Source: an uncultured Methanosarcinales archaeon (GTDB lineage: Archaea; Nanobdellota; Nanobdellia; Woesearchaeales; CAZYIM01). Taken from it: a stretch of DNA of 30,434 nt. The translations under genes and the position numbers were made by a program. The DNA is taken from NCBI GenBank assembly GCA_964647565.1, contig CAZYIM010000026.1, positions 10,762-41,195 of the forward strand. Direction: 5' to 3'. Below are positions 2,608 to 20,421 of this stretch, one piece after another. The notes below the pieces were generated by a model that did not search any database, was not told the origin of the DNA, and saw only the letters and a list, made by a program, of their open reading frames with translations. Numbering within the stretch: the stretch's first letter is position 1; each line of letters opens with the position of its first letter.

Positions 2608-3255
2608 TTGTTGATGCACTTTAATAATGAAAGTGCGTTTGGTGAGAATAGTACTTATGTATATGACTGGAGTGGGACTGGGAATAATGGTACAGTGTAT
2701 GGGGGAACTATTCCGAATGAATTGGCAAAATTTGGCAAGTCTTTCAACTACTCTGCAAGTGATGATTATATCACAGTTGATGATCATGCATCTATCAAGA
2801 ATATGGACGAGATGACTGTGGCCGTATGGATATATCCTTACAATACCGACGGGGTAGGATCTGATACTCAAACCATAGTACAAAAAGACAATCTTAATAA
2901 CGGAAATGAAAGGCCGTGGATATTGGGCTGGTGGAGTAACAATAACCCTGTGTTTGGAATGACAAATTCAAGCAATGGTTTCGTTAAAGCAGTATCTTCT
3001 GTGGACGCAAATCAGGATAGCTGGAACCACATGGTAGGCAGGCTAAATAGCACACATCTAACAATTTTCTTGAATGGATTTGAACGAGGAAGTGTACCTA
3101 GAACGAACCTAGATGCCACATCTAATACAGATCCTGTAACATTAGGAAGGCTTAGTTATACAGATGCCTGGCCGTTCTTAGGTTTAATTGATGAAGTGGC
3201 GATCTGGAATCGTTCTTTGAGTGAAGCAGAGATTGAGGCTTTGTATAATTATTCT
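2608..3255 (+). other. LamG/concanavalin A-like domain 1 of the giant protein (further copies at ~5700-6365 and ~14150-14840)
   Basis: Motifs L.HFNNES.FGEN...DWSG.GNNG, T..AW, W.H..G, Y.NG, F.G.IDEVA.WNRSLS..E..ALYNY in all three copies. Confidence 0.85.
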
Positions 3256-6200
3256 AAGACTAAGTTTTATCCTGTTTTTCAGAATGAGACTTTGGGTGAT
3301 GGTAATTATGTTTGGAATGTGTTGGCTTATGATAATGCTACGAGTTCTCAGAGTGATTGGGATAGTAATCGTTCGTTGTTGGTGGATGGTTCTGCTCCGG
3401 TTATTAATAGTAAGGGTGTTAATGTGAGTTCTGTTAGTCCTGGTGCTGGTGTTTGTATTAATGCTAGTGTGACTGAGAGTTTGTCTTCGGTTGATGCTGT
3501 TTGGGCGACTGTTACTCAGAGTAATGGTAGTGTGTTTAATACTAGTGAGTTTAGTGATACTGGTGATTGTGCTGGTGCGGGTGGTGATGGTTGGTATAGT
3601 GTGAATGTGAGTGTGGGTGATGTTGGCGGTACTTTTTATTATAATGTTACTTATGTTAATAATAGTGTTGGGGTTGTTGGTAGTAATTCTAGCGCGGTGA
3701 ATATTACTGTAAATACTGTTGATGATGCTCCTAATGTTTCCCTTTCATCTCCTGATGATGCCTCATTTGATGCTGATGGGAATGTTATCTTTAATTGTAC
3801 TGTGACAGATGACAATAGTATAGGTAACATAACTTTATATGGCAACTGGTCAGGTAGTTGGATTGCCAACAAGACGGTTGACTTTGGTAGTAATGGTGAG
3901 CATTGGGATACAGGCGATTTAGGAAATACATACGCTGTAACATTTGCTGATCTGGATAATGACGGTAAGAAGAATGATGTTATTGTTGCTAGTTATGATT
4001 CTGGACTTCCTGAAAATTATATTAGAGCGTATTGGCCTAATGGTTCGGTTAGATGGGATGAAAGTCCTGATAAGAAGAGTGCCGGTTTTGTCCGTGCTGT
4101 TCATGCAATGGATGTGGATGGGGATGGTTTTGATAATGATATCATAGTTGAGTTTAGTAGCGGTCTTTTTGCTGTTTATAACGAGAGTGGAAATAATGTT
4201 TCTGAATCTCCATATCCTCAGAACTGGATGGTTACGATGGGTGAGGCTGATTTGGATGGAAATGGAGTTTATGATTTAGTAACAATTGGGAGGGAGTTTA
4301 CTGGTGAGGTCAGGGCATATAACACTACTGATAATGGGTCGTCTTGGAATAATGTTTGGAATAAAACTGGAATGACTTATGCGATGGCTGAGATAGAAGG
4401 ATTTGATGCTGATTCTGATAATAAGACAGATGAGATGTTGTTGGTGGGTTTTGCTGAGATTTATTGTGTGGAGGCGAGGAACGGCTCAGTTATTTGGTCT
4501 AATACCTCAACTGAGATTCCTAGTTTGGCATCTGCTGCTGCCGCTGTTTTAGATTTGAATCATGATGGGAACAGAAATGAGGTTGTTTATAGTGCAGGCT
4601 ATTTCGCCCCCTATAATTTGTATGCAGTTGAGGGTGATACAGGTGATGTTATTTGGACTTCAGACATCCCCATGCATAGTAGTGCTCAGTATAATAGGGA
4701 GTTGATTCCTGCTGATTTAGATAATGATGGTTGGATTGATGATTTTGTAGTATCAAATTATTACATTCATGGTGTTAACAATGATTCTACTGTACTTTGG
4801 AATTTTACAACACCCACTGCATATATATATTCTGTTGCTGTTGGAGATTTGACAGGAGACGATGAAGTTGAGATTGTTGCAGGTGGGGATCAAGGAATTG
4901 TGTGGGTGTTAAACAGGACAGGTGCTTTGTTGTGGAGTAAGGATCTTGGCCAGGGCGATATTGGAACTGCTCTAGGAAAAGGTGAGGCAATTTCAATTGC
5001 TGACTTTAATGATGATGGAATTAATGATTTTGCTGTTGCGACTCTTAATGGTTTTGTGAATGTGTTTTCCCTGGTCACAAGCAATGTGACTGTTTCTTTC
5101 AATGTAACTGGTATTTCAGATGGGACTCATAGCTGGAACTGTTTGGCTTATGATAATAACAGCCAGAGTGATTGGGGCGATACTAACAATACGTTGACTG
5201 TGGATTCAACTGCTCCGGTTATTAATAGTAAGGGTGTTAATGTGAGTTCTGTTAGTCCTGGTGCTGGTGTTTGTATTAATGCTAGTGTGACTGAGAGTTT
5301 GTCTTCGGTTGATGCTGTTTGGGCGACTGTTACTCAGAGTAATGGTAGTGTGTTTAATACTAGTGAGTTTAGTGATACTGGTGATTGTGCTGGTGCGGGT
5401 GGTGATGGTTGGTATAGTGTGAATGTGAGTGTGGGTGATGTTGGCGGTACTTTTTATTATAATGTTACTTATGTTAATAATTCTCTGGGCTTGCTTGGCA
5501 GTAATTCGAGTGTTGTGAGTATTTCTGTTGATGCTGCCCCTAATACGACTTTGGTAACGCCGGCTAATGGGGCTGGTCTGACTTCTACGACTGTTAGGTT
5601 CATATCTAATGTTACTGATGGTAATAATGTTGTTAATGCCACACTCTATACTAATGAGACTAGTTGGTCTGCTAAGGAGACTAGGTGGAATGGTGAGATT
5701 GCTTACAATGACACGGGTCTTGTTTTCCTTGCGCATTTTAATAATGAGTCTTTGTTTGGTGAGAATGATACTTATGTATATGACTGGAGTGGGACTGGGA
5801 ATAACGGAACCTCTTATGTGAATAACAGTGATGGAAGTGTAAGAGGTCCAAATGCAACAGGCAAGTTTGGAGGCTCCTTTAGGTTTGATGGTAATGATTA
5901 CATAAATGCAGGAAAGGATGCTAGTTTAAATGTTGGTGGTGGGAATTTCACATTTGCAGCATGGGCAAAATTGTATTCAAATTCATCTGATAGTGAAATT
6001 GTTGTCAAAGGAGATCTTGGACAAGCTATAGATCTGCGTTATGATTTTGATGAAGACTCATGGCAATTCACTGTCAGTGCTGGCGGCTGGCAATATGCAA
6101 AATATTTACAGGAATCTCCTGTGATAAATACCTGGTATCATGTGGTAGGCATACGTAACGGAAGTACAATTAAAGTATATGTTAATGGCGTTGAAGGTAA

Positions 6201-9200
6201 CACAGTTGATACAGTTGGAACAGTGGCAAACCTCGTAACCTATAACCTTGTAATTGGACGTATAGGTGATACGGCAGATAGATACTTTAATGGTACAATA
6301 GATGAGGTTGCAGTCTGGAACCGCTCCCTGTCTGCCTCTGAGATTATGGCTCTTTATAACTACACCAAGACCAAGTTCTATCCAGTTTTCCAGAATGAGA
6401 CCTTGAGTGAGGCTGATTATGTTTGGAATGTGTTGGCTTATGATAATAATAGTCAAAGTGACTGGGATACCAACAACTCCTTTACTGTTTTAGACACAAT
6501 CAACCCTTCCATAAGCAACCTGGCGATCAATACAAGCCTGGTAAAGAACCAGAGCTTTGCCAAGCTCAATGCCTCGATAACAGATAATATAGGTGCTATA
6601 AATAGGGCGACATTCACTGTAAATAATTCAGTAGCAGCCGCGAACTATACAGCCATAGATAACTATCCTGAGTTCTATTACAACTATCAATGTAATGCAT
6701 CCGCCACCATACAATGGAGCCATGCCTATGCCAATGATAGCGCGGGTAACAATGACTCCAACCTAAACTTTGGCCTGAACTTTGTATGTGACGCAGACAG
6801 GCCAGTCATCAACAATGATGGCAGCAATACTACGAGTGTGGTCGTTGGCTCAAAGGCCTGCCTCTCAATAAATGTGACAGATAATCTGGTGGTTGATGCC
6901 AGCTCAGTGATTGCTCAGGTTTACAACACATCAGATTGGCTTAACCTTTCGATGAGCAATGCTTCTTCGAATTGCGGAAGTGCAGGCGGTTCTGTCTTTA
7001 CTGTTGAGCTGACCCTTAATGCAGGCGGCACCTGGAACTATTCTAAGGTATATGCATCTGATACTGCAGGCAATTCCCAATCATATGATTTCAATGACAG
7101 GACAATCTCAGCAGGAGAATTGGTCACCCCTACCAACCCTGCATCTTATATATCTGTGGATAGGGACGGGGTTAATGCTTCTGTGGCAGATAGCGCCCTG
7201 CTTGTGGCCAAGCTTAGCAATGGGACGAGTGGAGTGACAGTGACCTTCAAGGCTAATCTGACAGATCCTATCATTGCAGACCAGACCAACCTGACCCTGG
7301 ACACTGCTGTGACCAATGCAACAGGTTATGCCAGCATAACCTGGTCAGGCAATGATTCTCTTGGTGAGATGTATGCAGGCAATTACACCTGGTGGCCAGA
7401 GGCCACAGGATACAATCTTAACGGTACGAAGATCATATATCTTTATGGAGGCATGAATCTTACATTCAGGTATACGACCACTGATCCAAACACCAACTAT
7501 ACTGTTGGAAACACCATAACATTTGACACCCTGCTTGACTCAAAGGGCCCTGAGTCCAGGGGCCAGCTCAACAGCACCTACAGCGGTAATGTTTCCCTTA
7601 TACTGACCAATCCTCTCGGCTCGAACACCACCTTGGTACTTATAGACCCTGGCCCTGATGATGCTCCAAGAAGGGGGACCGCAGCTTCGAAGAAAGGAGA
7701 AGGAACTTCAAAGAATGAAGTAAAGCTTGTTGTTGAGGAGAAGCTTGCTGTTGTTGAGGATAGGAGGGCGCAGGTTGAGGCTTCTTCGACTAATGATTAT
7801 TATGCTCCTGATGGTAGTATTGGTGGTACTTGGGCTCAGGTTGCTGATGCTGATCAGGCTCCTGATGATACTCCTGATACTGATGATATTGATAATGCTA
7901 AGGAGTTGTTTACTTATGGTTTTTCGGGTTGGCCTGCTGGTGTTACTGTTAATGATGTTTGGTTGATGTTGAGGTGGCAGATTAGTGCTACTGGTGATGA
8001 TGATTTGGAGTTGAAGTATAAGTTGACTTCGGGTGGTACTTGGTTGGATTTGGATGGTACTACTTTTGCTTCTGATGATGCTGGTGTGTTTACTGCTAAT
8101 AGGTCTGTTGGTGCTTATGCTACTCAGGCTTATAAGATTACTTCTGGTTTGTCTTTGGCTAATTTGGATGATTTGTATTTGGGTGTGAATGCTGATAAGG
8201 ATGCTGGAGGTGATAATGATAATGCTGATATTGATGCTATTTGGTTGAGGTTGAATTATACAGTTCCTGATGCCAGCCCGAATGTTTCTAGCTTGGATTA
8301 TCCTGGTGATGGTATTTCTTTGGAGCCTGGTTTGGTTGATTTTAATTTCAGTGCTTCAGATGACTCTAAGATTTCGAATTGTTCGTTGTGGGCTAATTTT
8401 TCAGGTACCTGGGCCAGGAATGTGACTGTGTTAAACCCGACGAATAATAGTGAGGTTAATTTTACTGTTAATGTTTCTCTTGGAAATTATATCTGGAATG
8501 TTCAATGCTTTGATAATGCTACAACACCACAGGGTGACTGGTATGATAGCAATTATAGTGTTATTGTTTCCTGGTTTAAGCCTACTGTTCTTGATGTGAG
8601 TGTTGTTCCAAGTGCTGGTGTGAATGGGACTGTCCTGAATATCTCTGCCAATGTCACTGACGTTTATGGCTTGGGTGTTGTCAAGGCCCTGCTGGAATAC
8701 CCAAACGGTACGAATTTTATCAATGTTACCCTCGATAATAGCAGCGGCGGCACTATATATTATAATGAAACTTATGTTATTGATACGAATGAGGTCTGGG
8801 GTAATTTCACTGTCACTGTCTGGACGAATAATTCCAAGAACGTGATCAACCAGAGTGAGAGCGTCCAGTTTATTCCTTATTGGAATGTTTCTCAGAATAA
8901 GAGTATTACAGTTGATGGTGATGCCACTGACTGGAGCAATATGGCTAATTTAACTGACTTGCTTGGGGATAGTCTGGAGTATAATGGTTTTGTTCAGGTA
9001 GCAACCGGATATCGACATGGTTGTGCCATCCGGTTTAATGGTAGTGCTTATTGTTGGGGTTTGAGTGGTGAGGGTCAGGTTGGATATGGAGGTATATCCA
9101 CTCAGGGACTCCCTGTTGCTGTTAACATAGTTAATAATAATTTTAGCTTAATATCTGTAGGAAAATATCATTCTTGTGGTGTTCATGTGAATGGTAGTGC

Positions 9201-12200
9201 TTATTGTTGGGGTTTGAGTGGTGAGGGTCAGGTTGGATATGGGGGTATTGAGAGCCAATTGACTCCTATTGCTGTTAATATTGCTGTTAATAATTTCTCT
9301 GATATTGATGCGGGAGGCGACCATACTTGTGCTCTTCATGTGAATGGTTCTGCTTATTGTTGGGGTGAGGGCCTGTATGGTAAGCTTGGTAATGGGGATG
9401 AGGGCAATCGGACTGTTCCAACTCAAGTTAACTATGCCCCTAATAATTGGACAACCATTTCAGGAGGCGCTTGGCAGCATACATGTGCTCTTCCTGTTAA
9501 TGGTTCTGCTTATTGTTGGGGAAGAGGTTTGTATGGTGTGCTTGGTGATGGAGGGACAGTTCAACAAAATACTCCTGTTGCTGTTAGTATTGGTGTTAAT
9601 AATTGGTCATCTATCTCTGCAGCTAAGGTCCATACTTGCGGCGTCCACATTAATGGTAGTGCTTATTGTTGGGGTGTTGGCACGGATGGCGAGCTTGGTT
9701 ATGGCGGTACTAGTGCTGCTGAGAACCTTCCGCTTGCTGTGAACTTTTCTCCTAATAATTGGACTGCTATCTACGCTAGCGACGAGCATACCTGCGGCGT
9801 TGTGCCTAATGGTTCTGCTTATTGTTGGGGTAATGGGAGTTATGGTGCGCTTGGATATGGGGGTAATGACAGTCAATTTGTCCCCATTTCTGTTAATAAG
9901 ATCCCTAATAACTGGAGTGTTTTATCTCAGGATGATGGAGAGTTTTTTTCTTGTGGTATCTTGTATAATGGTACTCTTTACTGTTGGGGTGAAGCAGGTA
10001 CTTCTAAGAGAACCGGGTTAAATTCCATGACTGATGTGTTTGTTCCTACTCAAGTAGTCTTTGATTATAGCCAGCCTATTACTGAGTTTGATTTGAAAAC
10101 AGTTTCTGTTACAAACAACGAAACACGTATTTTTGGATTACTTATTGATGGGGATGGACTTGTTGATGTTTCAAATGGGTTTGAGTATTATCGTATATAT
10201 CTCTCTACTTCTTCTGGTGGCAATAGTTCTAGTCCTGAGGGGAATTCTTTGCCGTTTGCGTATGATTATCGTGTTCAGGTGAATGGCAGTGTTTGTTATG
10301 TGTATAATGTTAGTTTTGATAATATGAGTAGTTGTAGTTTTGCGAATAGTGGTGGTGTTTTGGAGTTGTCTGTTTCGTTGGAGGATTTGGGTGCTTCGAC
10401 TGGTGATGTTTGGAATGTTAGTTTTGAGACTGCGAATTCAACTGCGCGTTATGATCTTGCTCCGGATAGTGCTTCTTTTGTGCGGTTTCCTTTGACGGGT
10501 TCGTTTGATTTTGGTGTTCCTTTGGTTAGTAGTGTGAGTGTTGTTCCTGGTATTGGTGTGAATGGTAGCGTGTTGAATGTTTCTGCTGTTGTTACAGATG
10601 ATAATACTGTTAGCATTGTTAAGGCAATGCTTAACTATCCAAATGGAAGCAATTTTGTTAATGTTAGTTTGGATAATACTGGTGGTGGCAGTGTGTATTA
10701 TAATGCGACTTATGCCTTGGATAATTTGGGTGTCTGGGGTAATTTGACTGCAACGATTTATGCTACTGATACTGGTGGTTATATCAATCAGAGTGAGAGC
10801 GCTCAGTTTATTCCTTATTGGAATGTGAGCCAGAATGGGAGTATTACTTTGGATGGTGCTGTTGGTGATTGGAGCACGCTTGCTAAACTTTCAGAGCCAT
10901 CAAGTGGAGATGCTGCGTCTTCTTATTCATTAAATTGGTCGTATAATTGGACATCACCTGAAAACCGGCATGATATTGCGTATGATGTTTTTGAGGATTC
11001 AAACGGTTCTGTGTATGTGGTTGGTTATGGTTCTAATACTTCGGGGAACGGTAATGCGAGGGATTGGTTAGTACAGAAACTGAATAGTGATAATAGTTTG
11101 AACTGGTCGTATAATTGGAGTTCGTCTGCCTTTCAAAATGATGAGGCGTATGGTGTTGCTGTGGATTCGAATGGTTTTGTGTATGTGGCAGGTTACGGCA
11201 AGAATGTTGTGGGGCAAGGCAATACTCCTGATTGGGTGGTTCAGAAGTTGAATTCTGATGGAGGGTTGAATTGGAGTTATAACTGGAGCTCGCCTGGAAG
11301 TAATTGGGATATTGTGGAGAGTGTTGCGGTTGATTCGAGTGGTTTTGTTTATGCTGCAGGCCGTGGCATGAATGCTTCTGGTAATGGTATTGCTTATGAT
11401 TGGTTGGTTCAGAAGTTGAATTCTGATGGTAGTTTGAATTGGTCTTATAATTGGACCTCTGCATGGGAATTCGGAGATGATGAACCGTATGGTGTTGCTG
11501 TTGATGATTCTGGTTTTGTGTATGTTGCTGGTTATGGCATTAATGCTTCGGGGAGTGGCAATGCTAATGATTGGTTGGTTCAGAAGTTGAATTCTGAGGG
11601 CTCATTGTGGTGGAGTTATAACTGGAGTACAGCAGGATCTAACACCGACACAGCAGAGGGTGTTGCTGTGAATTCTAGTGGTTTTGTCTATGTTGTTGGT
11701 AATGGTTTTAATGCTTCGGGGAGCGGCAATACCAATGATTGGGTGGTGCAGAAGCTTTCGATTGGTGGTACTATTGACTTGAAGGCTGTTTCTGTCTCTA
11801 ACAATGATTCTTATTTGTTTGGTTTGGTTGAGGTTGGGGGTAGTGTTGATGCTTCTGGTGCTGATGATTATTATCGTATGTATATCTCTACCACTAGTTC
11901 TGGTAATAGTACGTCTCCTGAAGGCAATTCTTTGCCGTTCCCATATGATTATCGTGTTCAAATAAATGGCAGTACTTGTTATGTGTATAATACGAGCTTT
12001 GTTAATATGAGCAGCTGTAGTTTTGCCAGCAGCAGTTCTTATCTTGAGTTTAGTTTTAATTTTTCTGATCTTGGTTTGAGTGTTAATGATACTGTTAATA
12101 TCACCTTTGAGACTGCTAACTCTACTACGGATGGGTTTGATTTGGCTCCTGATTATGCTTCTTTTGTGAAGTATACTATCAAAGAGGTTGATTTGGCTGC

Positions 12201-15200
12201 TACTGATGATGCGCCTACTACTAACTTAGTTTCGCCTTCAACAGCAACTTTTGATTCTGATGGAAATGTTATCTTTAATTGTACTGTGACAGATAACTAC
12301 GGGATAGCTAACATCACCCTCTACGGCAACTGGTCAGGAAGTTGGACAAAAAACATTACGATTGATTATGGTCAAAATGGTGTACATTGGAGTACAAGTG
12401 ATATTGGTACAGTGTTTAATGTTAAATTTGCTGATCTCAATAATGATAGTATCATAGATACCCTGCTTTCGGATGCAACAAATTCCCCTCCTGGAGAAAG
12501 AGTGATGGCATATTACTTCAACGGAAGTTCCGGATGGAACTATACGTCTGACAGAGCAAAGGCATTTTTCATAGGAGATGTTGATGGCGACAGTGACAAT
12601 GATGTGTTTGCTTTGGACCAGAGAGGATTCACTATCCTGAATAATACTGGTGGGCTCATAGATAACGACATATTGAATCTCCCTATAGTGGCCACTTTAG
12701 CAGTGACTGACATGGACAATGACAGCGTGTATGATTTATTGGCTATAGGTGATTCCAGTAATAGATTTGTTTATGTCTTCAATGCTACTACCTATGATAA
12801 TTGGGAAAACGTATATAATATTACATTTCCAGACAATACGCAAGATTACCCTACTGAACTCCTTTTTGCTGATATAGATGGGGATGGAATAAAGGATGAA
12901 CTGCTTGTGGCAGATAGTGATAACGGACTTTATGTAATGAATGCGACAGACGGAACGTTTATCTGGAATTCAACAAGCAGCAGAAGAGCCAAAGCAATGG
13001 TATTGGTGGACTTGAATGATGATGGGGATGAGGAGATTGTCTTTGGAGGTCAGAAATGGGATGACAAACAAGTATTTGCATATTTCAAGAACTACACGCA
13101 GTATTGGAATATTAGTATTTCCTTGACACAGAATTGGATATATGAGATTGATACGGCTGATCTGGACAATGATGGAAAAACAGATGAGCTTGTTATTGGT
13201 ACACAGGATGGAGATATCTACGCTTACGACGAAACAGGCAGTTTTATGTGGAATTTTACAGGGCCTTCAAACCTAATGCTCAGCATTGCTGTCGGTGACC
13301 TTGATAATGATGGTGAGGATGAGATTGCGGCTGGAGGAGATGATCATGTCCTTTACATAATAGATAGAAATGGTAATTCCCTGTGGAACTATAGTACTGC
13401 TGGTGATATTGGAGCAGATACATTTGGATTCGGTGCAATTGATATCGCAGACTTAAATCAGGATGGTGTTAATGATATTGCAGTAGCTGATCAAGATGGG
13501 TATGTATATTTGATTACAGTGCCGACAAACGATACAATTGCATCGTATAATGTGGCAGGTTTATCAGATGGAAACTATGTCTGGAACTGCTTGGCTTATG
13601 ATAACGCAAGCCAGACTGATTGGGCTAATAGCAACAATACGTTGACTGTTGACAGTTCTGCTCCGGTTATTAATAGTAAGGGTATTAATGTCAGTTCTGC
13701 AGATCCTGGTGATACTGTCTGCATTAATGCTAGTGTGACTGAGAGTTTGTCTTCGGTTGATGCTGTTTGGGCAACTATCACTCAGAGCAATGGCACTGTT
13801 ACTAACACTTCGGAGTTTAGTGATACTGGTGATTGTGCTGGAGTTGGTAGTGACGGGTGGTATAGTGTGAATGTGAATGTGGGAACTACTGGTGGCACTT
13901 TCTATTATAATGTCACTTATGTTAATAACAGTGTTGGATTGCTTGGCAGCGATACAACTCCTGCCAGTATTGCTGTGGATGCTGCCCCTAATACTAATTT
14001 GGTTTCGCCTGTTAATGGAGCTGGTCAGAGCTCTTCTGTTGTTAGGTTTGTTTCTAATGTTACTGATGGTAATAATGTTGTTAATGCCACACTCTATACT
14101 AATGAGACGACTTGGTCTGCGAAGGAGACGCGGTGGAATGGTGAGGTTGCTTATAATGATACTGGTTTGGTATTGTTGATGCACTTTAACAATGAAAGCG
14201 CGTTTGGTGAGAATGATACTGTAGTGTTTGATTGGAGCGGAAATGGAAATAATGGAACCATGGGTGCTGGAAACGAATTTATTAATAGTGCTGGCCGTTT
14301 TGGTGGGAGCTTGAAATTGGATGGTGTGAGTGATTATGTTGATGTGGGAAATACTAGCAGTCTAAAAATTAATAGCTCGATTACCATGAGTGCTTGGTTT
14401 AAATTTGATGAACTACCTAGCGTATTGGGAAGACAAGGATATATCATGGGGAAAGGGCGCTCTTTGTCAGGTTCGGGAGTATATGGGTATAGTCTTGTTA
14501 TTCATACAGATGATGATGCATATTGGGATATTTATGATTCAAGTGGGCTAAGGGATTATCAACCTTGCAATCTTCCAACACTTCAGAAAGATGTGTGGTA
14601 TCATATCGGGGTTACTTGGGATGGAACTAATGATGCTAATGGGAAAAGATGTTATCTTAATGGAAATTCCACTGATAACAATACAGTGACAATAAAAAAT
14701 ATTAGTATGCCTGATATGAATTTCTATATAGGCAAAGATAAGGTTCGTGAAGATTACGATTTCAATGGAAGCATTGATGAAGTAGCAGTCTGGAACAGAT
14801 CACTTTCCCATGCAGAAATGAAAGCTCTCTATAACTACACCAAGACTACATATCAGCCTGTTTTCCAGAATAGGACAGTTGCGGATGGTAATTATGTTTG
14901 GAATGTGTTGGCTTATGATAATAACAGCCAGAGTGATTGGGATACCAATAATTCGTTGACTGTGGATGCTTCATTTCCTTACTTTTCCAATAATGCCACT
15001 ACTGGTGTCTATAAGAAAAACACCAACTACACAGCCAATGTGACTGTGAATGATAATAGCCTGGACTATGTATGGATCGAGAGTAATCATACAGGAACCA
15101 TGAATAATTACAGTGTTACAGACATATCTGGAATGGAATATAATTTCAGCACATCATTGAACATATCAGCTGGCAGGGGCAACAAGGTCTGCCATAGGTT

Positions 15201-17760
15201 CTTTGCCAATGATACCGCAGGCAATATCAACAACTCAGGAACCTATGAGTGCTTCTTTGTATTGAACACAGCACCTACATATGACCAGAGCCTGACAGCG
15301 CAGACTGTGAATGTTAGTGATTCCTCTTTTGTCTATGACATCAACTGCACTGAGATTGACGGTGATACTCTGACCTATTACGATAATACCACTCTCTTTG
15401 ACATCAACACCACTTCAGGAGTTATAAACCACAGTCTCTCAGAGTCTGACGCGGGGTCGTATAATGTTCAGATAACCTGTGGAGATGGCTATGATAACAC
15501 CAGCCAGACCTTCACTTACACTATATATGACAATGTGGTTCCAACCACAGTCCTGGTCAGTCCTGCTGACACAACTATAACTGTGTTAGGAGGTGTGATG
15601 ACTACCTTTAATTGTTCAGCAACAGACAGCTATGGCCTGAAGAATGTCAGCCTCTACATCACCGACAGCGATAACCAGAGCTTCAGCTTTAACTCTTCAT
15701 CAAGCCTGTCAGGAACAAGTGATTGGGCCAACTGGACATATAACATGACAATTGGCAACTACACATGGAATTGCCTGGTCTACGATACCTACAACAACTC
15801 AGACTGGGCTGTAAACAGGAGCTATATAGTGCAGCGTCCTGTGAAACACTGGAACAATACTTATTTGACAAACGGGAAGCAACCAGGAGTTTGGAATATC
15901 AGTACAAGGGCAACGGCAAAATGGTTCTACACAGTAAGCCAGGTAAGAGCTAGGAACTTCACGTTAAATAGTTCACCTGGAAATGCTGCGCCAACAAACC
16001 CAACACCCATAATAAATTCAAGCGACGGTACGAACTACTCAAGCCAGGATCTGAATTGCTTAGCAACTCTGGATGATGATGACAACGATACTATGAATGT
16101 GTCTGTAAGGTGGTTTGTTGGAGGGATCCTGAATATTACAGCACACTTCAACAACAGTTATGCGAATGGAACTGACTTCAATGCAACGCTGGGATCTGGT
16201 AACACATCTGCAGGCCAATCCTGGAGCTGTTCAATGAGAGTGTATGACCAGAATGGCAGCAGTGATTGGGGAAACTCAAGTTATTTGCTTGTGAAGGCAG
16301 AGGACGTGGGGCCGCCAAATGTTTCCAGTCTTGACTATCCTGGCAATGACAGTTTGATATTTAATCTTCCTATTGATTTCAACTTTACTGTCAGCGACGA
16401 TGTTCAGCTAGTTAACTGTAGCTTATTTGCTAATTTTTCACAAGTATGGGAAATAAACAAGACTATCTATCCGCCAACTAATGTTGAAGCGATGTACAAC
16501 ATGACAGTCAGTCCGCCAGATGGTAATTATATATGGAACGTGGTCTGTTATGACGCTGCATCTCCTCCCAATTTGGGTTGGTTTGGCTCTAATTACACAG
16601 TCGAGGTTGATGGAGCAGCCCCTACTTGGGCAAATCAGGAGAACGATGCGGATTGGAACACGACAACATTTGACAATATCACTTTCAATATCACTTTCAC
16701 AGACAAGACCCCTGATACATACACCCTAAGTATCTTCGACAGAATTTGCGATGCTCCTGGTTGTTTTAACGAATGGACCAACTATACAGGAACCTATACT
16801 TCAGGTGAGAAAATCAGCAGGGTTATTCAGATCCGTGCCAAGGGTGGGGAAGTCTTCAAATGGAGATGGTATGCAAATGATAGTGCAGGAAGGCTTCTAA
16901 AAACGCAATACTGGTTTGAATATGCTCATGGAGCTCCTCCTCCGCCTGATGAATATAATTCAACCTGGGATGGAGAGAACTTCACCTTCTATTGGGAAAA
17001 CATAACAAATGCCACTCAGTACAGGATTTACATGTTCGATGATCTGAATGATGATTACTGGGATTACCAGAACATATCTGGATCAACAAATACATTTATG
17101 CATGAAAATGCATCCCAATATGAACGTATGTTTTATAAGCTTGCCTGTGTAAATGATGAAGGAGAAACCAATACATCGGTTTTAATGGGCAACTGGAGAT
17201 ACACCTTAGAAAGAGAACCGGGAGGACTTAACAAGAACTGGATATCCCTGCCAATAAATAACTCTGATTACGAAAGAGCAAGCGACTTGCTTTCAGCCCT
17301 GTCGTATGCTACTGCAATCACATACTGGAATGCAAGTACGCAACAGGCTGTTGGCTGTACCTTGGCCTACTGTCCCACATCATGTGAACCTACCGCATGT
17401 GACTTCTACCTAAAGCCTGGACAGGCTTATGAGGTGGACTTGAATTCAACAGCACCAGAACAGCTTAACTGGACGCTTAATGGAATTGTTTTTGGTAGGA
17501 CCAATATTTCCCTTGATCGCAATGTTTCAGGCGCAAACTGGATTGCTGTACCTGCAGACACAGAACTAAACTGGTCCTCAGATCTTGTGACTAGTATCGG
17601 TGCAAGTAAAGTTGTGGCAGTAAACAAATGGAACGCCTCGACTCAGGCATCCATGGGATGGGTAAATCTTAGAGGCGGAAGAGGCATTAATTTCCCGCTC
17701 ATAGGCCGTGAGGGCTATGAAGTCTGGGTAAATGACTCTGTGGATTGGGAGCAGACGTGA
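2608..17760 (+). CDS. Giant multidomain cell-surface adhesin-like glycoprotein (at least 5050 aa, 5'-truncated)
   Basis: 15.1-kb uninterrupted ORF. LamG/ConA-like domains (IDEVAxWNRSLS), FG-GAP/VCBS DxDxDG repeats, RCC1 repeats, SBBP-like repeats, many Ig-like domains and very dense N-x-S/T sequons. It starts mid-domain (LMHFNNESAFGEN; compare GLVLLMHFNNESAFGEN at ~14164) with an in-frame TAA at 2596-2598 and no signal peptide. Confidence 0.92.
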   Translation: MLMHFNNESAFGENSTYVYDWSGTGNNGTVYGGTIPNELAKFGKSFNYSASDDYITVDDHASIKNMDEMTVAVWIYPYNTDGVGSDTQTIVQKDNLNNGNERPWILGWWSNNNPVFGMTNSSNGFVKAVSSVDANQDSWNHMVGRLNSTHLTIFLNGFERGSVPRTNLDATSNTDPVTLGRLSYTDAWPFLGLIDEVAIWNRSLSEAEIEALYNYSKTKFYPVFQNETLGDGNYVWNVLAYDNATSSQSDWDSNRSLLVDGSAPVINSKGVNVSSVSPGAGVCINASVTESLSSVDAVWATVTQSNGSVFNTSEFSDTGDCAGAGGDGWYSVNVSVGDVGGTFYYNVTYVNNSVGVVGSNSSAVNITVNTVDDAPNVSLSSPDDASFDADGNVIFNCTVTDDNSIGNITLYGNWSGSWIANKTVDFGSNGEHWDTGDLGNTYAVTFADLDNDGKKNDVIVASYDSGLPENYIRAYWPNGSVRWDESPDKKSAGFVRAVHAMDVDGDGFDNDIIVEFSSGLFAVYNESGNNVSESPYPQNWMVTMGEADLDGNGVYDLVTIGREFTGEVRAYNTTDNGSSWNNVWNKTGMTYAMAEIEGFDADSDNKTDEMLLVGFAEIYCVEARNGSVIWSNTSTEIPSLASAAAAVLDLNHDGNRNEVVYSAGYFAPYNLYAVEGDTGDVIWTSDIPMHSSAQYNRELIPADLDNDGWIDDFVVSNYYIHGVNNDSTVLWNFTTPTAYIYSVAVGDLTGDDEVEIVAGGDQGIVWVLNRTGALLWSKDLGQGDIGTALGKGEAISIADFNDDGINDFAVATLNGFVNVFSLVTSNVTVSFNVTGISDGTHSWNCLAYDNNSQSDWGDTNNTLTVDSTAPVINSKGVNVSSVSPGAGVCINASVTESLSSVDAVWATVTQSNGSVFNTSEFSDTGDCAGAGGDGWYSVNVSVGDVGGTFYYNVTYVNNSLGLLGSNSSVVSISVDAAPNTTLVTPANGAGLTSTTVRFISNVTDGNNVVNATLYTNETSWSAKETRWNGEIAYNDTGLVFLAHFNNESLFGENDTYVYDWSGTGNNGTSYVNNSDGSVRGPNATGKFGGSFRFDGNDYINAGKDASLNVGGGNFTFAAWAKLYSNSSDSEIVVKGDLGQAIDLRYDFDEDSWQFTVSAGGWQYAKYLQESPVINTWYHVVGIRNGSTIKVYVNGVEGNTVDTVGTVANLVTYNLVIGRIGDTADRYFNGTIDEVAVWNRSLSASEIMALYNYTKTKFYPVFQNETLSEADYVWNVLAYDNNSQSDWDTNNSFTVLDTINPSISNLAINTSLVKNQSFAKLNASITDNIGAINRATFTVNNSVAAANYTAIDNYPEFYYNYQCNASATIQWSHAYANDSAGNNDSNLNFGLNFVCDADRPVINNDGSNTTSVVVGSKACLSINVTDNLVVDASSVIAQVYNTSDWLNLSMSNASSNCGSAGGSVFTVELTLNAGGTWNYSKVYASDTAGNSQSYDFNDRTISAGELVTPTNPASYISVDRDGVNASVADSALLVAKLSNGTSGVTVTFKANLTDPIIADQTNLTLDTAVTNATGYASITWSGNDSLGEMYAGNYTWWPEATGYNLNGTKIIYLYGGMNLTFRYTTTDPNTNYTVGNTITFDTLLDSKGPESRGQLNSTYSGNVSLILTNPLGSNTTLVLIDPGPDDAPRRGTAASKKGEGTSKNEVKLVVEEKLAVVEDRRAQVEASSTNDYYAPDGSIGGTWAQVADADQAPDDTPDTDDIDNAKELFTYGFSGWPAGVTVNDVWLMLRWQISATGDDDLELKYKLTSGGTWLDLDGTTFASDDAGVFTANRSVGAYATQAYKITSGLSLANLDDLYLGVNADKDAGGDNDNADIDAIWLRLNYTVPDASPNVSSLDYPGDGISLEPGLVDFNFSASDDSKISNCSLWANFSGTWARNVTVLNPTNNSEVNFTVNVSLGNYIWNVQCFDNATTPQGDWYDSNYSVIVSWFKPTVLDVSVVPSAGVNGTVLNISANVTDVYGLGVVKALLEYPNGTNFINVTLDNSSGGTIYYNETYVIDTNEVWGNFTVTVWTNNSKNVINQSESVQFIPYWNVSQNKSITVDGDATDWSNMANLTDLLGDSLEYNGFVQVATGYRHGCAIRFNGSAYCWGLSGEGQVGYGGISTQGLPVAVNIVNNNFSLISVGKYHSCGVHVNGSAYCWGLSGEGQVGYGGIESQLTPIAVNIAVNNFSDIDAGGDHTCALHVNGSAYCWGEGLYGKLGNGDEGNRTVPTQVNYAPNNWTTISGGAWQHTCALPVNGSAYCWGRGLYGVLGDGGTVQQNTPVAVSIGVNNWSSISAAKVHTCGVHINGSAYCWGVGTDGELGYGGTSAAENLPLAVNFSPNNWTAIYASDEHTCGVVPNGSAYCWGNGSYGALGYGGNDSQFVPISVNKIPNNWSVLSQDDGEFFSCGILYNGTLYCWGEAGTSKRTGLNSMTDVFVPTQVVFDYSQPITEFDLKTVSVTNNETRIFGLLIDGDGLVDVSNGFEYYRIYLSTSSGGNSSSPEGNSLPFAYDYRVQVNGSVCYVYNVSFDNMSSCSFANSGGVLELSVSLEDLGASTGDVWNVSFETANSTARYDLAPDSASFVRFPLTGSFDFGVPLVSSVSVVPGIGVNGSVLNVSAVVTDDNTVSIVKAMLNYPNGSNFVNVSLDNTGGGSVYYNATYALDNLGVWGNLTATIYATDTGGYINQSESAQFIPYWNVSQNGSITLDGAVGDWSTLAKLSEPSSGDAASSYSLNWSYNWTSPENRHDIAYDVFEDSNGSVYVVGYGSNTSGNGNARDWLVQKLNSDNSLNWSYNWSSSAFQNDEAYGVAVDSNGFVYVAGYGKNVVGQGNTPDWVVQKLNSDGGLNWSYNWSSPGSNWDIVESVAVDSSGFVYAAGRGMNASGNGIAYDWLVQKLNSDGSLNWSYNWTSAWEFGDDEPYGVAVDDSGFVYVAGYGINASGSGNANDWLVQKLNSEGSLWWSYNWSTAGSNTDTAEGVAVNSSGFVYVVGNGFNASGSGNTNDWVVQKLSIGGTIDLKAVSVSNNDSYLFGLVEVGGSVDASGADDYYRMYISTTSSGNSTSPEGNSLPFPYDYRVQINGSTCYVYNTSFVNMSSCSFASSSSYLEFSFNFSDLGLSVNDTVNITFETANSTTDGFDLAPDYASFVKYTIKEVDLAATDDAPTTNLVSPSTATFDSDGNVIFNCTVTDNYGIANITLYGNWSGSWTKNITIDYGQNGVHWSTSDIGTVFNVKFADLNNDSIIDTLLSDATNSPPGERVMAYYFNGSSGWNYTSDRAKAFFIGDVDGDSDNDVFALDQRGFTILNNTGGLIDNDILNLPIVATLAVTDMDNDSVYDLLAIGDSSNRFVYVFNATTYDNWENVYNITFPDNTQDYPTELLFADIDGDGIKDELLVADSDNGLYVMNATDGTFIWNSTSSRRAKAMVLVDLNDDGDEEIVFGGQKWDDKQVFAYFKNYTQYWNISISLTQNWIYEIDTADLDNDGKTDELVIGTQDGDIYAYDETGSFMWNFTGPSNLMLSIAVGDLDNDGEDEIAAGGDDHVLYIIDRNGNSLWNYSTAGDIGADTFGFGAIDIADLNQDGVNDIAVADQDGYVYLITVPTNDTIASYNVAGLSDGNYVWNCLAYDNASQTDWANSNNTLTVDSSAPVINSKGINVSSADPGDTVCINASVTESLSSVDAVWATITQSNGTVTNTSEFSDTGDCAGVGSDGWYSVNVNVGTTGGTFYYNVTYVNNSVGLLGSDTTPASIAVDAAPNTNLVSPVNGAGQSSSVVRFVSNVTDGNNVVNATLYTNETTWSAKETRWNGEVAYNDTGLVLLMHFNNESAFGENDTVVFDWSGNGNNGTMGAGNEFINSAGRFGGSLKLDGVSDYVDVGNTSSLKINSSITMSAWFKFDELPSVLGRQGYIMGKGRSLSGSGVYGYSLVIHTDDDAYWDIYDSSGLRDYQPCNLPTLQKDVWYHIGVTWDGTNDANGKRCYLNGNSTDNNTVTIKNISMPDMNFYIGKDKVREDYDFNGSIDEVAVWNRSLSHAEMKALYNYTKTTYQPVFQNRTVADGNYVWNVLAYDNNSQSDWDTNNSLTVDASFPYFSNNATTGVYKKNTNYTANVTVNDNSLDYVWIESNHTGTMNNYSVTDISGMEYNFSTSLNISAGRGNKVCHRFFANDTAGNINNSGTYECFFVLNTAPTYDQSLTAQTVNVSDSSFVYDINCTEIDGDTLTYYDNTTLFDINTTSGVINHSLSESDAGSYNVQITCGDGYDNTSQTFTYTIYDNVVPTTVLVSPADTTITVLGGVMTTFNCSATDSYGLKNVSLYITDSDNQSFSFNSSSSLSGTSDWANWTYNMTIGNYTWNCLVYDTYNNSDWAVNRSYIVQRPVKHWNNTYLTNGKQPGVWNISTRATAKWFYTVSQVRARNFTLNSSPGNAAPTNPTPIINSSDGTNYSSQDLNCLATLDDDDNDTMNVSVRWFVGGILNITAHFNNSYANGTDFNATLGSGNTSAGQSWSCSMRVYDQNGSSDWGNSSYLLVKAEDVGPPNVSSLDYPGNDSLIFNLPIDFNFTVSDDVQLVNCSLFANFSQVWEINKTIYPPTNVEAMYNMTVSPPDGNYIWNVVCYDAASPPNLGWFGSNYTVEVDGAAPTWANQENDADWNTTTFDNITFNITFTDKTPDTYTLSIFDRICDAPGCFNEWTNYTGTYTSGEKISRVIQIRAKGGEVFKWRWYANDSAGRLLKTQYWFEYAHGAPPPPDEYNSTWDGENFTFYWENITNATQYRIYMFDDLNDDYWDYQNISGSTNTFMHENASQYERMFYKLACVNDEGETNTSVLMGNWRYTLEREPGGLNKNWISLPINNSDYERASDLLSALSYATAITYWNASTQQAVGCTLAYCPTSCEPTACDFYLKPGQAYEVDLNSTAPEQLNWTLNGIVFGRTNISLDRNVSGANWIAVPADTELNWSSDLVTSIGASKVVAVNKWNASTQASMGWVNLRGGRGINFPLIGREGYEVWVNDSVDWEQT
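3392..3663 (+). repeat. 272-bp direct repeat, copy 1 (Ig-like module APVINSKG...YYNVTYVNN)
   Basis: Base-for-base identical to 5210-5481 (offset 1818). A diverged third copy lies at ~13658-13929. Confidence 0.95.
3895..5070 (+). other. FG-GAP/VCBS-type beta-propeller 1 (second copy at ~12375-13520)
   Basis: Seven DxDxDG-like Ca-binding loops (ADLDNDGK, MDVDGDGF, ADLDGNGV, FDADSDNK, LDLNHDGN, ADLDNDGW, GDLTGDDE) plus ADFNDDGI. Confidence 0.85.
5210..5481 (+). repeat. 272-bp direct repeat, copy 2
   Basis: Identical to 3392-3663. Confidence 0.95.
8985..10065 (+). repeat. RCC1-like seven-bladed beta-propeller (7 x ~51 aa)
   Basis: Seven repeats of G..H.C....NGSAYCWG....G.LG.G.......P..V. A 53-bp stretch is identical between blades 1 and 2 (9037-9089 = 9190-9242). 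Confidence 0.9.
10927..11760 (+). repeat. SBBP/NHL-like beta-propeller repeats (5 x ~56 aa, ~168-bp period)
   Basis: Five copies of LNWSYNW.S.....D.A.GVAVDS.GFVYV.G.G.N.SG.G...DW.VQKLNS. Confidence 0.85.
13658..13929 (+). repeat. Diverged third copy of the 272-bp module
   Basis: APVINSKGINVSSADPG...YYNVTYVNN, with long identical patches against copies 1 and 2 interspersed with substitutions. Confidence 0.9.
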
Positions 17761-17762
17761 GA

Positions 17763-19826
17763 ATGATGAATAAAAATAAAAAATCCGGATGGCGCATGAC
17801 TCGAATAATTGTGTTGATCTTAATAGCAATCATATTGATATCAGATGCCTCTGCTCTTGTACACTGGGTTTGCGGCAGTGTGGCTGACGCTGCAGATGGC
17901 ACCAACGCTTACCATAAAGAGATAAGAATATACTATGATGATGCTGATAGTTACTCACCCTGTACTGTGGGCGTTGAGAGTAAGTACTGCTGTGATGCAG
18001 GGGCAATACCCAACTTGGATTGGACAATAGGTGATGTTGTCAACCTTTATATTCCTGACCCTGGAGACAACTACTATGCCGATGCTGTTAGTGTCGTAAC
18101 CACAGGGGAGGGTTTTGATACAGCACCTGACCTGCTTCTGACATCTGATTTGATGATACTTTTGCCTTTAAACCAGACATATAGAGTGAACTATACGACC
18201 TTAAGCATAATCTCAAAAGACTCTTACAGCAGGGCCATATGGTATGACTTGGACAATAAAGGTAATATAACCATCTGCAATGTTTGTACAACAGCCATAA
18301 GAAACCTTACAGGCCTAGGTGATACAACCCATACAGTAAAGGCCTATGCAATTGACGCCTCCAACAACATAATATCTAAGCAAAGGAATTTTGTAATAGA
18401 TGCAATAAACGATCCACCGACAGTGATTATGGCAGATGATATATTGACTGCTACAGAGAACGTGCTTTTTACATATGATGTGAATGCAACAGATCCTGAC
18501 GGTGATAACGTGCAGTTCTTTACAGACTCAAGCCTGTTTACCATAGATGTTGATACAGGGCTGATTAACTTTACACCTGGGCCTAGCGATGGCGGTAACT
18601 ATACAATAACCATCTCTGCTAGGGATACTGCAAACGCAACTGGCACAAAAGTAATCCTGCTTGAGATTATTCCTGTGAATGATCCGCCAAGCATTGATGA
18701 CTTCTACCCTGCGACAACACCTGTGACCATAACAGAAGGGGAAACATTGACTTTCAGCATAAGTAAGTCAGATCCTGATGCGACAACTCCGACAGTTAAG
18801 TGGTATAGGAACAACTCAGAGCTGGCAGGTGAAGATGGTGATTACTATACTTTCAGATCTGGCAGCCAATTTAGCAATCCCTTAGGATCTTATAAGATAA
18901 AAGCAGAGATCAGTGATGGAGAATTTTCAGTCAACCAACAATGGGTGTTGTTTGTCGCTGAACAAGAAAGCACTTCTTCTACCCGACAGGAGATTGATCC
19001 GTTTACAATCACTGTAGATAATGCTGACGATCCTGAACTCGCTATAACCAGCCTGATAATAACGACCAATGGAGAGACAAGAAACGTTGGTATAACTCTT
19101 AAGAGATTGGATGGGAAGCCGTCCTGGCTTGTTATGGACGATCCTAATAAGATTTACCAATATATAGAGATAATACATAACAACCTGACATCAGATGAAA
19201 TTGATCAGGTCAAAATAAGGTTTACTGTTGAAAAGGCCTGGCTTGAATCCAATAACTTCGATCCTAGTATTGTGATCCTAAAAAGATATGAGAACTCCAG
19301 CTGGCATGCTCTGGAGACTCATTTGCTAAAAGAGGATGATGAATATTTCTATTATGAATCTGTCTCAAACAGATTGTCCTTATATATAATAACTATTGCA
19401 GAGCCAATTAAGCAAGAACTAGAGAAGGAAGAAGAGCCGAAGAAAGACGAGCCTGAGGAAGAGGATATAACGCCTATTAACTTAACTGAAATTGTTCGTC
19501 AGATACCATATTTAGATGTAGTCATGGTTCTTGCGATAACAGCTGTGTTGGCAATGTTGGTAGCTTCATTCATATTCAATCTTAAAAAGGGAAATCTTAA
19601 GTTTGTCAGAAAAAAGAAACAACAAATACGAGGGGCTCAGAGAAAAAAAGGAAAGCAAGAAAAAGGAAAACCTGATGAACTAGTAGTCCCGACACCGCCC
19701 AAGAACATGGACAGGTATGTGATTAAAGATAAGGTTCCACGACCTTCTGAAGAGAAACATATGCGGCCTAGTTTAAAAGAAAAGGTTCGCAAATCTAAGA
19801 GCAAGAAACGCAAGAATAAGAAATAA
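17763..19826 (+). CDS. Membrane-anchored surface protein with cadherin/Ig-like domains, PGF-pre-PGF domain, C-terminal TM helix and basic cytoplasmic tail
   Basis: Start is ATG17763 or ATG17796, just after the giant gene's stop. Signal peptide IIVLILIAIILISDASA; NDPP...ATDPDGD...GLINFTP; IYQYIEI...IRFTVEKAWLESN...LKRY...W..LET...YFYYES...LS.Y.I; TM VVMVLAITAVLAMLVASFIF; Lys-rich tail. Confidence 0.85.
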   Translation: MMNKNKKSGWRMTRIIVLILIAIILISDASALVHWVCGSVADAADGTNAYHKEIRIYYDDADSYSPCTVGVESKYCCDAGAIPNLDWTIGDVVNLYIPDPGDNYYADAVSVVTTGEGFDTAPDLLLTSDLMILLPLNQTYRVNYTTLSIISKDSYSRAIWYDLDNKGNITICNVCTTAIRNLTGLGDTTHTVKAYAIDASNNIISKQRNFVIDAINDPPTVIMADDILTATENVLFTYDVNATDPDGDNVQFFTDSSLFTIDVDTGLINFTPGPSDGGNYTITISARDTANATGTKVILLEIIPVNDPPSIDDFYPATTPVTITEGETLTFSISKSDPDATTPTVKWYRNNSELAGEDGDYYTFRSGSQFSNPLGSYKIKAEISDGEFSVNQQWVLFVAEQESTSSTRQEIDPFTITVDNADDPELAITSLIITTNGETRNVGITLKRLDGKPSWLVMDDPNKIYQYIEIIHNNLTSDEIDQVKIRFTVEKAWLESNNFDPSIVILKRYENSSWHALETHLLKEDDEYFYYESVSNRLSLYIITIAEPIKQELEKEEEPKKDEPEEEDITPINLTEIVRQIPYLDVVMVLAITAVLAMLVASFIFNLKKGNLKFVRKKKQQIRGAQRKKGKQEKGKPDELVVPTPPKNMDRYVIKDKVPRPSEEKHMRPSLKEKVRKSKSKKRKNKK

Positions 19827-19916
19827 AAGGTTTTTATTTATGATGATTTAATTGCTGCTTGCGGAGAAAGTAGCAGGATAAATCCTCCTTTCTTAACAGA
19901 GCCCAATTATAAAAAC

Positions 19917-19953: not shown

Positions 19954-19963
19954 TTGTAGTGGG

Positions 19964-20419: not shown

Positions 20420-20421
20420 CC

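Follow-up and report, generated by a model that had tools for sequence, protein, structure and literature searches.

The giant gene examined here lies in a window of 30,434 nucleotides (nt), the whole stretch of DNA that was analyzed, which corresponds to C26:10762-41195 of the draft genome of an uncultured DPANN archaeon (label G000; 2.68 Mb in 86 contigs, 87% complete). The source DNA is also present in marine and seawater metagenome runs from two studies. The gene encodes a protein assembled from LamG, FG-GAP, RCC1, and SBBP beta-propeller modules with many N-x-S/T sequons, and it contains four tracts in which almost every codon ends in one of the keto bases, G or T, instead of one of the amino bases, A or C. 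The fraction of keto bases at third codon positions is called keto below, and coordinates are positions in the window unless a contig is named. The relevant features are as follows.

2608..17760, plus strand: giant open reading frame (ORF) of 5050 amino acids, encoding a modular secreted or surface protein and holding all four tracts
3229..3690, plus strand: tract 1, 154 codons with a keto of 0.994, covering the end of a LamG module and an Ig-like module
3392..3663, plus strand: identical core in tract 1, 272 nt that agree with 5210-5481 at every base and are read as a gene conversion tract
5209..5481, plus strand: tract 2, the recipient or partner copy of the tract 1 core
7723..8259, plus strand: tract 3, the focal tract, 179 codons of which 178 end in T or G, single-copy in the assembly
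10222..10566, plus strand: tract 4, 115 codons with a keto of 0.983
13627..13926, plus strand: third copy of the module of tracts 1 and 2, with 83% nucleotide identity to copy 1, a keto of ~0.74-0.77, and no identical DNA left

The focal tract is in frame with the giant ORF, and its third bases comprise 127 T, 51 G, a single A (GGA at 8206), and no C. These counts agree exactly with the original prediction, which had been made from the letters of the window and had also proposed similar tracts at about 3190-3690, 5210-5480, and 10230-10600 as well as neighboring segments free of the bias. All three additional tracts were recovered as T/G-ending runs. Uninterrupted runs extend over 3229-3624 (132 codons) and 3628-3690 (21 codons) in tract 1, 5209-5442 (78 codons) in tract 2, 7723-8205 (161 codons) in the focal tract, and 10222-10284 (21 codons), 10288-10437 (50 codons), and 10441-10566 (42 codons) in tract 4; one shared GGC is the sole departure from T/G-ending codons in the identical core of tracts 1 and 2. 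The contrast segments proved to be ordinary, with a keto of 0.40-0.63 over 6478-7648 and 0.30-0.73 over 15028-17638 in 30-codon windows. The left edge of the focal tract is sharp, with 0.40-0.60 in the windows just before it, and within the giant gene the fraction jumps from 0.4 to 1.0 between adjoining windows. Independent contigs from four sequencing runs of two studies match the focal region at 100% and bridge the right edge at 8259/8260; they cover positions 7978-8374, not 7718-7977, at a depth of 2-5x.

Relative to the rest of the source genome, the tracts are exceptional. The mean keto is 0.526 with a standard deviation of 0.099 (15,411 windows of 50 codons), and at this mean the probability of at least 178 keto bases among 179 third positions is 1.3e-48. 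Nowhere else in the genome is a T/G-ending run as long as the 161 codons of the focal tract; runs of the control dichotomies reach at most 62 codons (purine or pyrimidine), 40 codons (A/T), and 53 codons (G/C). Windows of 60 codons with a keto of at least 0.93 form nine regions in six ORFs genome-wide, four of which lie in the giant gene. A segment finder returned seven real coding blocks, i.e., four in the giant gene and three in two RHS-type toxin paralogues, plus two further hits that are low-complexity repeats, and in all seven real blocks the keto bases are on the coding strand. The genome at large is unskewed, with only eight stretches deviating by at least 0.09 in 3-kb windows. The original prediction had ascribed the tracts to a strand-asymmetric process acting on exchanged modules, and had named agreement with a genome-wide strand or expression bias as speaking against it; the tracts match no such bias.

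Among the 526 codons of the four tracts, A or C occurs as the third base only four times (T 0.74, G 0.26, C 0.00, A 0.00). Nearly a single codon is used per amino acid (GCT, GGT, ACT, CCT, GAT, AAT, TAT, ATT, TTT, AAG, GAG, CAG, and TTG), with Val split between GTT and GTG, Ser split between AGT and TCT/TCG, and Leu encoded 29 times by TTG versus 3 times by CTT. The bias also reaches the protein: first-position G amounts to 0.44 versus 0.30-0.33 in the two contrast segments, first-position C to 0.06 versus 0.12, and V, G, A, D, and S are increased at the expense of N, T, I, M, and H. At codon positions 1 and 2, the comparison with in-genome paralogues revealed 71 amino-to-keto versus 19 keto-to-amino transitions and 39 versus 17 transversions (p = 0.005). 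The transversion excess beside the transitions indicates that the bias follows the keto and amino classes and not deamination-type transitions alone. The tracts thus display an extreme strand-specific swap of A and C for G and T, and the data strongly indicate, where they do not directly demonstrate, that it affects every position left free by protein selection. The focal tract encodes a domain of ~160 amino acids without a Pfam family that recurs in DPANN surface proteins. Its five homologues found, in two other genomes of the order and one metagenome contig, have 39-54% amino acid identity and an ordinary to mildly raised keto (0.51-0.70), so that the purity is derived in the source lineage.

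Deamination had been put forward in the original prediction as the chemistry behind the tracts (C>T and A>G), and in its strand-coordinated form it would strike the single strand exposed in each conversion, with C changing to U, A to hypoxanthine, and protein selection leaving T and G. This process is equally linked to conversion tracts, allows the keto bases to accumulate on either strand depending on which one is exposed, and agrees with the finding that the strongest asymmetry is in transitions; relatives with a strong leading-strand-type keto skew also show that a potent strand-asymmetric process operates in the order. Nevertheless, deamination alone fails to account for the transversion excess and for the fourfold degenerate sites, which are ~80% T (about 190 T to 47 G) and not the T/G mix derived from C and A. 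A transition-only origin from a normal codon pool is ruled out by this ratio. Moreover, a purity of 99% would need a tract-specific rate ~100 times the reverse rate, and the association with a repair enzyme reported below is not predicted. We therefore regard strand-coordinated deamination as unlikely.

The connection with duplicated DNA is seen at tract 2, which turns T/G-only where the identity to copy 1 begins, the codons upstream ending in A or C. Repeated DNA, 3.7% of the source genome, holds 12 of its 15 windows of 50 codons with a keto of >0.9; the focal tract accounts for the remaining three. Tract 4 has a diverged paralogue at ~11905-12249 with 54% amino acid identity in our own alignment and a keto of 0.80. 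Tracts 1 and 2 bear out the proposal that the bias mostly tracks repeated modules, and tract 4 does so loosely; the focal tract, present once in the assembly, does not. The idea that all repeats are biased is ruled out by unbiased repeats in G000 and in two related genomes, G084 and G163. A cytoplasmic repeat protein on C17 carries a T/G-only block of ~48 codons, near-identical in its repeats 2 and 3, between diverged flanks of ordinary composition. Duplicated coding blocks of the source genome also occur in a toxin family.

G000 C2:34154-35611, C8:45816-47213, and C2:42108-43517: RHS/YD-type polymorphic-toxin paralogues

The ~230 N-terminal codons shared by these paralogues have a keto of 0.93, 0.87, and 0.74, and the variable C-terminal tips one of ~0.5-0.7. 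The two closest copies differ at 13% of their DNA, and T<->G exchanges make up 14 of their 31 synonymous differences, a share far above the expectation of unconstrained decay. The paralogues have a signal peptide, a Cys-rich domain, and the end of the RHS core in common, and their C-terminal tips are unrelated; the identity between two of them sets in ~22 nt ahead of the reading frame. Recombinases of the RecA/Rad51 type prefer G+T-rich single strands as pairing substrates, and exchanging modules might accordingly be selected for maximal G+T on one strand. Such selection would fit exchanged modules, allow either strand, and agree with the fact that the biased parts of the RHS toxins are the conserved parts serving tip swapping. 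It is nevertheless very improbable, because second-order selection lacks by far the strength to bring single synonymous sites to 99% purity, and it neither predicts the repair enzyme association nor explains why a pair of cytoplasmic ATPase genes, described below, is affected.

In 234 of 401 genomes of the order, a 46-position period-3 keto pattern was matched, and these matches fall into genome-wide strand skew (class 1), sharp blocks (class 2), and low-complexity repeats. Class 2 genomes combine an ordinary overall composition with sharp, purer blocks, as in the source genome. Class 1 genomes (G353, G222, G031, G045, and G043) are extremely strand skewed whatever the gene orientation, with a keto of 0.7-0.9 for genes on one strand and 0.1-0.3 on the other; the low-keto genes include those for a class II aminoacyl-tRNA synthetase and LonB, both at 0.14. 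The skew of class 1 may be among the strongest of the replication type known.

Two class 2 relatives were inspected across their sequence, i.e., G084 (one closed contig of 909,956 bp, 99% complete, read whole) and G163 (852 kb of 1.1 Mb read, 98% complete). In G084, 11 period-3 pure segments fall into six loci, each of which has a copy at 97.8-100% identity within the same gene, in the neighboring gene, or inverted at a distance of 328 kb; one segment, the second half of one block, is without its own copy. The first pure codon is the start of the identity, and purity in one codon phase is found at seven of the nine repeat loci of this genome (at least 150 bp, at least 90% identity). Among the six pure loci, three are mirror blocks with exclusively A- or C-ending codons (keto 0.00-0.05), and these are also near-identical duplicates; they are coding, located in ORFs of 3073 and 2315 amino acids plus a tandem repeat. 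The four blocks of G163 make up two pairs, each 99.9% identical and with a keto of 0.991-0.998, and the identity begins at the first pure codon. The bias acts on DNA and not on the codon, and it is not tied to the coding strand. The core of the original prediction, a strand-asymmetric DNA process tied to exchanged modules, is borne out by the shift at codon positions 1 and 2 and by the coincidence of pure blocks with near-identical duplicates in all three genomes. As a separate candidate, the target of a diversity-generating retroelement, whose template and variable repeats differ at adenines, was dismissed from the repeats, with no search for a reverse transcriptase, since the copies differ at 0 of 272 core bases in the giant gene and the blocks of G084 and G163 are 97.8-100% identical.

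The mirror blocks also bear on selection at the codon or RNA level and on transcription-coupled mutation, a group of explanations comprising tRNA use, avoidance of A/C-only triplets (RNases, terminators), hidden stops, and R-loop damage to the non-template strand. The coding-strand position of the keto bases in all seven real blocks of the source genome speaks for them, as does the fact that T/G-only third positions bar every A/C-only triplet in all frames. A transcription-associated asymmetry would place the keto bases always on the coding strand, but A/C-only and T/G-only coding blocks coexist in G084. In addition, the amino acids change too, the edges are sharp inside one transcription unit, and C- and T-ending codons share tRNAs in archaea, which counts against codon-level selection. 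Avoidance of T runs, as in archaeal terminators, was rejected as the basis of the choice between G and T at fourfold sites, the observed run lengths being equal to the codon-shuffled expectation. These explanations are scarcely credible for the tracts.

The persistence of the keto-pure state can be judged from a pair of blocks that occurs in both relatives.

G084:C1 755238-756371 and 759418-760551; G163:C1 306980-308200 and 311435-312655: HerA/DUF87-like ATPase block pair

G163 and G084 come from different families, and in both the block occupies the same two neighboring genes; the pair is orthologous. In the flanks, the two genomes have 26-46% protein identity, and the third base is the same at 30 of 81 identical residues, i.e., saturated. 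The blocks themselves are 71% identical, with T<->G accounting for 52 of 61 synonymous differences, and this turnover within the keto class implies that the keto state has been held in both lineages since their split. Judging from these alignments, the HerA-like pair is a case of concerted evolution under persistent directional pressure and not of recent import. The pair is absent from G000, where only a partial match of 35% was found. The HerA-like genes have differing N-terminal parts and a DNA-identical ATPase domain, and their locus adjoins giant surface-protein genes that likewise have identical blocks in common.

Import from replicons with extreme skew (relatives such as G353, plasmids, or viruses), followed by copying before amelioration, is the main alternative for the partnerless focal tract, and residence on another replicon or strand had also been considered in the original prediction. 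Strongly skewed genomes exist in the order (keto 0.7-0.9 on one strand, with housekeeping genes on the other at 0.14), and the source genome itself harbors integrase and VirB4-like genes at 0.1-0.2 and one strand-skewed island. The focal tract, moreover, is sharply bounded and without a partner, and it is poorer in glycosylation sequons than the remainder of the protein. On the other side, no gene seen in the sampled genomes with the strongest skew (up to ~0.92) attains the purity of the blocks (0.976-0.998), and a genome at 0.97 should yield tens of thousands of pattern matches, which was observed in none of the 401. The nearest focal-domain relatives among the genomes searched are the five homologues with the keto values given above; querying viral contigs with the protein sequence of the focal domain revealed no relative, and a homologous-protein search restricted to longer proteins returned nothing at E<=1e-3. 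The orthologous HerA-like pair in two families argues for upkeep in place, and the T<->G turnover between the RHS paralogues also counts against import. Foreign origin is thus disfavored and, for the blocks as a whole, quite unlikely.

Taken together, the comparison of the three genomes strongly indicates, if it does not already establish, that the pure blocks in this archaeal order are mostly units of ongoing gene conversion between paralogous copies and, with the same firmness, that the keto-pure state has been held over long evolutionary times. The tracts are probably the products of a conversion-linked, strand-polar drive from amino to keto bases. In our literature searches, whose scope left out subscription journals and supplements, such blocks or a keto-biased conversion were not found described.

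The division into keto and amino bases is also the substrate division of the mismatch repair endonuclease NucS/EndoMS, and this enzyme is therefore proposed as the driver. According to the excerpts of the published reports on which we draw, the Thermococcus enzyme cuts G/T, G/G, and T/T well, T/C and A/G weakly, and C/C, A/C, and A/A hardly, its targets being worded as "mismatches made of G and T" (PMC4838380), and the Corynebacterium enzyme has the same specificity (PMC6159521). In Mycobacterium smegmatis, oligonucleotide alleles with C-C, A-A, C-A, A-C, and G-A mismatches were kept, those with G-G and G-T were removed by NucS, and the repair patch was <=6-9 nt (PMC11551744). Connections with recombination are indicated as well, since NucS restrains homeologous recombination (PMC5290159), the nucS deletion in Haloferax impairs gene conversion (PMC11276520), and a preprint on Mycobacterium tuberculosis describes a T>C excess in paralogous regions and speculates on NucS during recombination (PMC13061034).

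In the source genome, full-length NucS is encoded by a 245-amino-acid ORF (PF21003 and PF01939) that includes C9:42572-42922(-), and it matches EndoMS 5gke over residues 6-242, including both domains, with an E value of 4e-52. MutS and MutL domains (PF00488 and PF01119) were found in none of the three genomes G000 (87% complete), G084 (99%), and G163 (98%), and control genomes were positive; this negative does not prove their absence. The C-terminal NucS family, the only one searched there, gave a match over the cut-off in five of five relatives; G353, G222, G031, and G045 all carry NucS. In the order as a whole, NucS is patchy, with a match over the cut-off in 165 of 401 genomes, and the positive set comprised 159 genomes after matches judged weak by E value had been dropped. 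We had predicted before the test that genomes with NucS would be richer in the keto pattern, and at least 100 pattern matches were present in 33 of 159 genomes with NucS versus 7 of 242 without (Fisher, 7e-9). The association was retained without ten unpublished genomes (33 of 159 versus 7 of 232) and with one genome per family (G001-G135; 11 of 54 versus 0 of 81; Fisher, 2e-5).

Under the proposed mechanism, NucS/EndoMS, the only mismatch repair enzyme detected, would recognize G/T, G/G, and T/T and ignore A/C, A/A, and C/C, and one strand of a paralogue would pair repeatedly, and in an unvarying polarity, with the other copy. Where the incoming strand places an A or C against an A or C already present, its base would escape repair and be fixed in half of the progeny, and a G or T brought in against a G or T would be cut out. 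In this way, the transferred strand would come to consist of A+C alone and its complement of G+T alone, one site at a time owing to the short repair patch, with nonsynonymous changes vetoed by protein selection. Which strand is transferred would decide whether the codons come to end only in T or G or only in A or C. The T:G ratio within the keto class would be set by ordinary AT-biased mutation, since G<->T and A<->C changes are expected to be neutral, and transitions would be driven in the same way as A<->T and C<->G transversions. Such a model fits the asymmetry between the base classes and the exchange of T and G at synonymous sites, and it agrees with the occurrence of both signs, the sharp edges, and the altered amino acid composition. 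The specificity of NucS is the most likely cause of the drive, albeit one that we put forward tentatively, and a conversion-linked drive powered by NucS/EndoMS is the best explanation as a whole, falling just short of what we would call probable. That NucS/EndoMS, which serves as mismatch nuclease in most Archaea and Actinobacteria, imposes such a strand-polar "keto-biased gene conversion" wherever paralogues keep converting, rewriting codons and even amino acids, is a more doubtful generalization, though one worth entertaining. Blindness to A/C-type mismatches may also be the source of the extreme strand skew seen across whole genomes in some DPANN lineages.

Several observations weigh against the conversion-linked drive or against NucS as its cause. 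The focal tract has no repeat partner in the 87%-complete assembly, and the depth of the public contigs (2-5x) gives no sign of a second copy; the conversion link for this single-copy tract is an extrapolation, and the reading is weaker there. In its comparison with distant homologues, the transversion asymmetry appeared in only two of five cases. The pure coding of copy 1 runs 163 nt upstream past the identical core, so that purity is not strictly the latest conversion tract. Conversely, identical DNA is not always pure: the leader and the first ~20 codons of the RHS paralogues are identical yet not pure, the identity of the G163 pairs ends ~20 nt past the last pure codon in sequence that is not pure, and the other two of the nine G084 repeat loci are not pure. 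Among 14 repeat pairs at >=90% identity in the source genome, bias is confined to the tract 1/2 pair and one low-complexity pair; in G163, two of eight repeats are pure, one more reaches 0.84, and five are short and unbiased. The block signs of G084 at 344, 672, and 744-782 kb are not those expected from its cumulative keto skew, which is weak.

With respect to the enzyme, seven genomes without a NucS match still have at least 100 pattern matches, although the absence of a match in a draft genome does not mean the absence of the gene and the locus shown for one of the seven, G145, is of low complexity. The pattern count mixes class 1 skew, true blocks, and low-complexity repeats, and kin are not independent in the census, which leaves kinship above the family level uncontrolled. 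A fixed polarity of strand transfer is a requirement assumed by the model, the predicted sign hinges on whether a NucS cut restores the resident allele or triggers a new conversion, and the specificity has been carried over to DPANN archaea from the Thermococcus and Corynebacterium enzymes. We infer the evolutionary consequence, the fixed polarity, and the activity of NucS in DPANN archaea, the published steps coming from other organisms.

The closest likeness may be sought in GC-biased gene conversion (gBGC) of eukaryotes and bacteria, which is likewise a repair bias in recombination heteroduplexes that mimics selection, is limited to sites of conversion, outweighs weak selection on amino acids, and can move synonymous sites towards fixation. 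The tracts differ in that keto bases are favored over amino bases and not strong over weak ones, and in being strand polar, of both signs, and 98-100% pure in blocks of 0.2-1.4 kb with codon-sharp edges. Whereas gBGC favors G and C symmetrically on both strands, third-position C is 0.00 here and mirror blocks exist. As expected of biased conversion in general, all sites including nonsynonymous ones are affected, and the bias is confined to exchanged segments in the tract 1/2 core, G084, and G163, but not in the focal tract. The rejection of oligonucleotides by NucS in M. smegmatis shares the elementary step invoked here and the repair patch of a few bases, but the excerpts of that report concern laboratory editing in an actinobacterium and include no evolutionary footprint, paralogue conversion, or archaeon (PMC11551744). 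Our literature searches turned up no report that derives a long-term footprint from this rejection.

Replication strand skew, with its G+T-rich leading strand, involves the same two base classes and is extreme in relatives of the order. The blocks differ from it as sub-genic units with sharp edges inside one ORF, and the block sign in G084 departs from the background skew; an extent on the scale of replichores was found in G353, G222, G031, and G045, but not in G000. G163 has a purine-type skew only, and the skews of G084 and G163 do not support the idea that the keto strand is always the leading strand. The antigenic-variation cassettes of Borrelia vls, with their coding-strand G excess, are also surface-protein segments that are exchanged by gene conversion and have an unusual composition of one strand. 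In the present case, however, no expression site with an array of silent cassettes was seen, cytoplasmic proteins (the HerA-like ATPase and the repeat protein) are affected, and the bias spans both G and T and is near-absolute. Kataegis, i.e., strand-coordinated mutation clusters at resected DNA or break-induced-replication DNA in eukaryotes, resembles the blocks in its tract-limited base changes on one strand that are tied to recombination intermediates; it differs in being C-specific, deaminase-driven, and the result of somatic single events without selective filtering into codon-pure blocks.

If a conversion-linked drive powered by NucS/EndoMS is true, the substrate range of one repair enzyme would explain why blocks of 0.2-1.4 kb use half of the codon table across an archaeal order, and a second biased gene conversion would stand beside gBGC, strand-specific and strong enough to alter protein composition. 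Selection tests, codon-usage analyses, and the detection of horizontal transfer would then be misled by such blocks. The pure blocks would in turn provide a genome-readable record of gene-conversion units, concerted evolution, and the polarity of strand transfer, which would help to study the diversification of giant surface proteins and polymorphic toxins in uncultured symbiotic archaea. The drive would be directly testable in tractable organisms with NucS.

Some further observations concern the domain encoded by the focal tract and its surroundings. Motifs of the domain include DDDLELKY and IDAIWLR. In a metagenome relative (L074 782-1315), it is located at the N terminus, directly after a signal or transmembrane segment, and in the giant protein it is inserted mid-protein behind a Lys/Arg-containing linker. 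Three more genes encoding secreted proteins follow downstream in the window (17745-22005). The small ORF 19964-20419 closes with a counterpart of the last ~40 residues of the giant protein, marked by the motif WxNxRGGRGINF...Y.V, and this common C-terminal segment may be a shared anchoring or sorting module. Elsewhere in the source genome, an island of ~9 kb (C11:11001-20000) is A+C-rich on the plus strand whatever the gene orientation, with a keto of 0.28-0.44 for plus-strand and 0.68-0.69 for minus-strand genes, and may be an integrated piece from a skewed replicon. Mobile-element-type genes at C33:27427-27876, C22:42595-42744, and C2:125566-125715 have mostly A/C-ending codons (keto 0.08-0.18); they encode a VirB4/TraG-like ATPase and integrase-like proteins, named by eye from their motifs.

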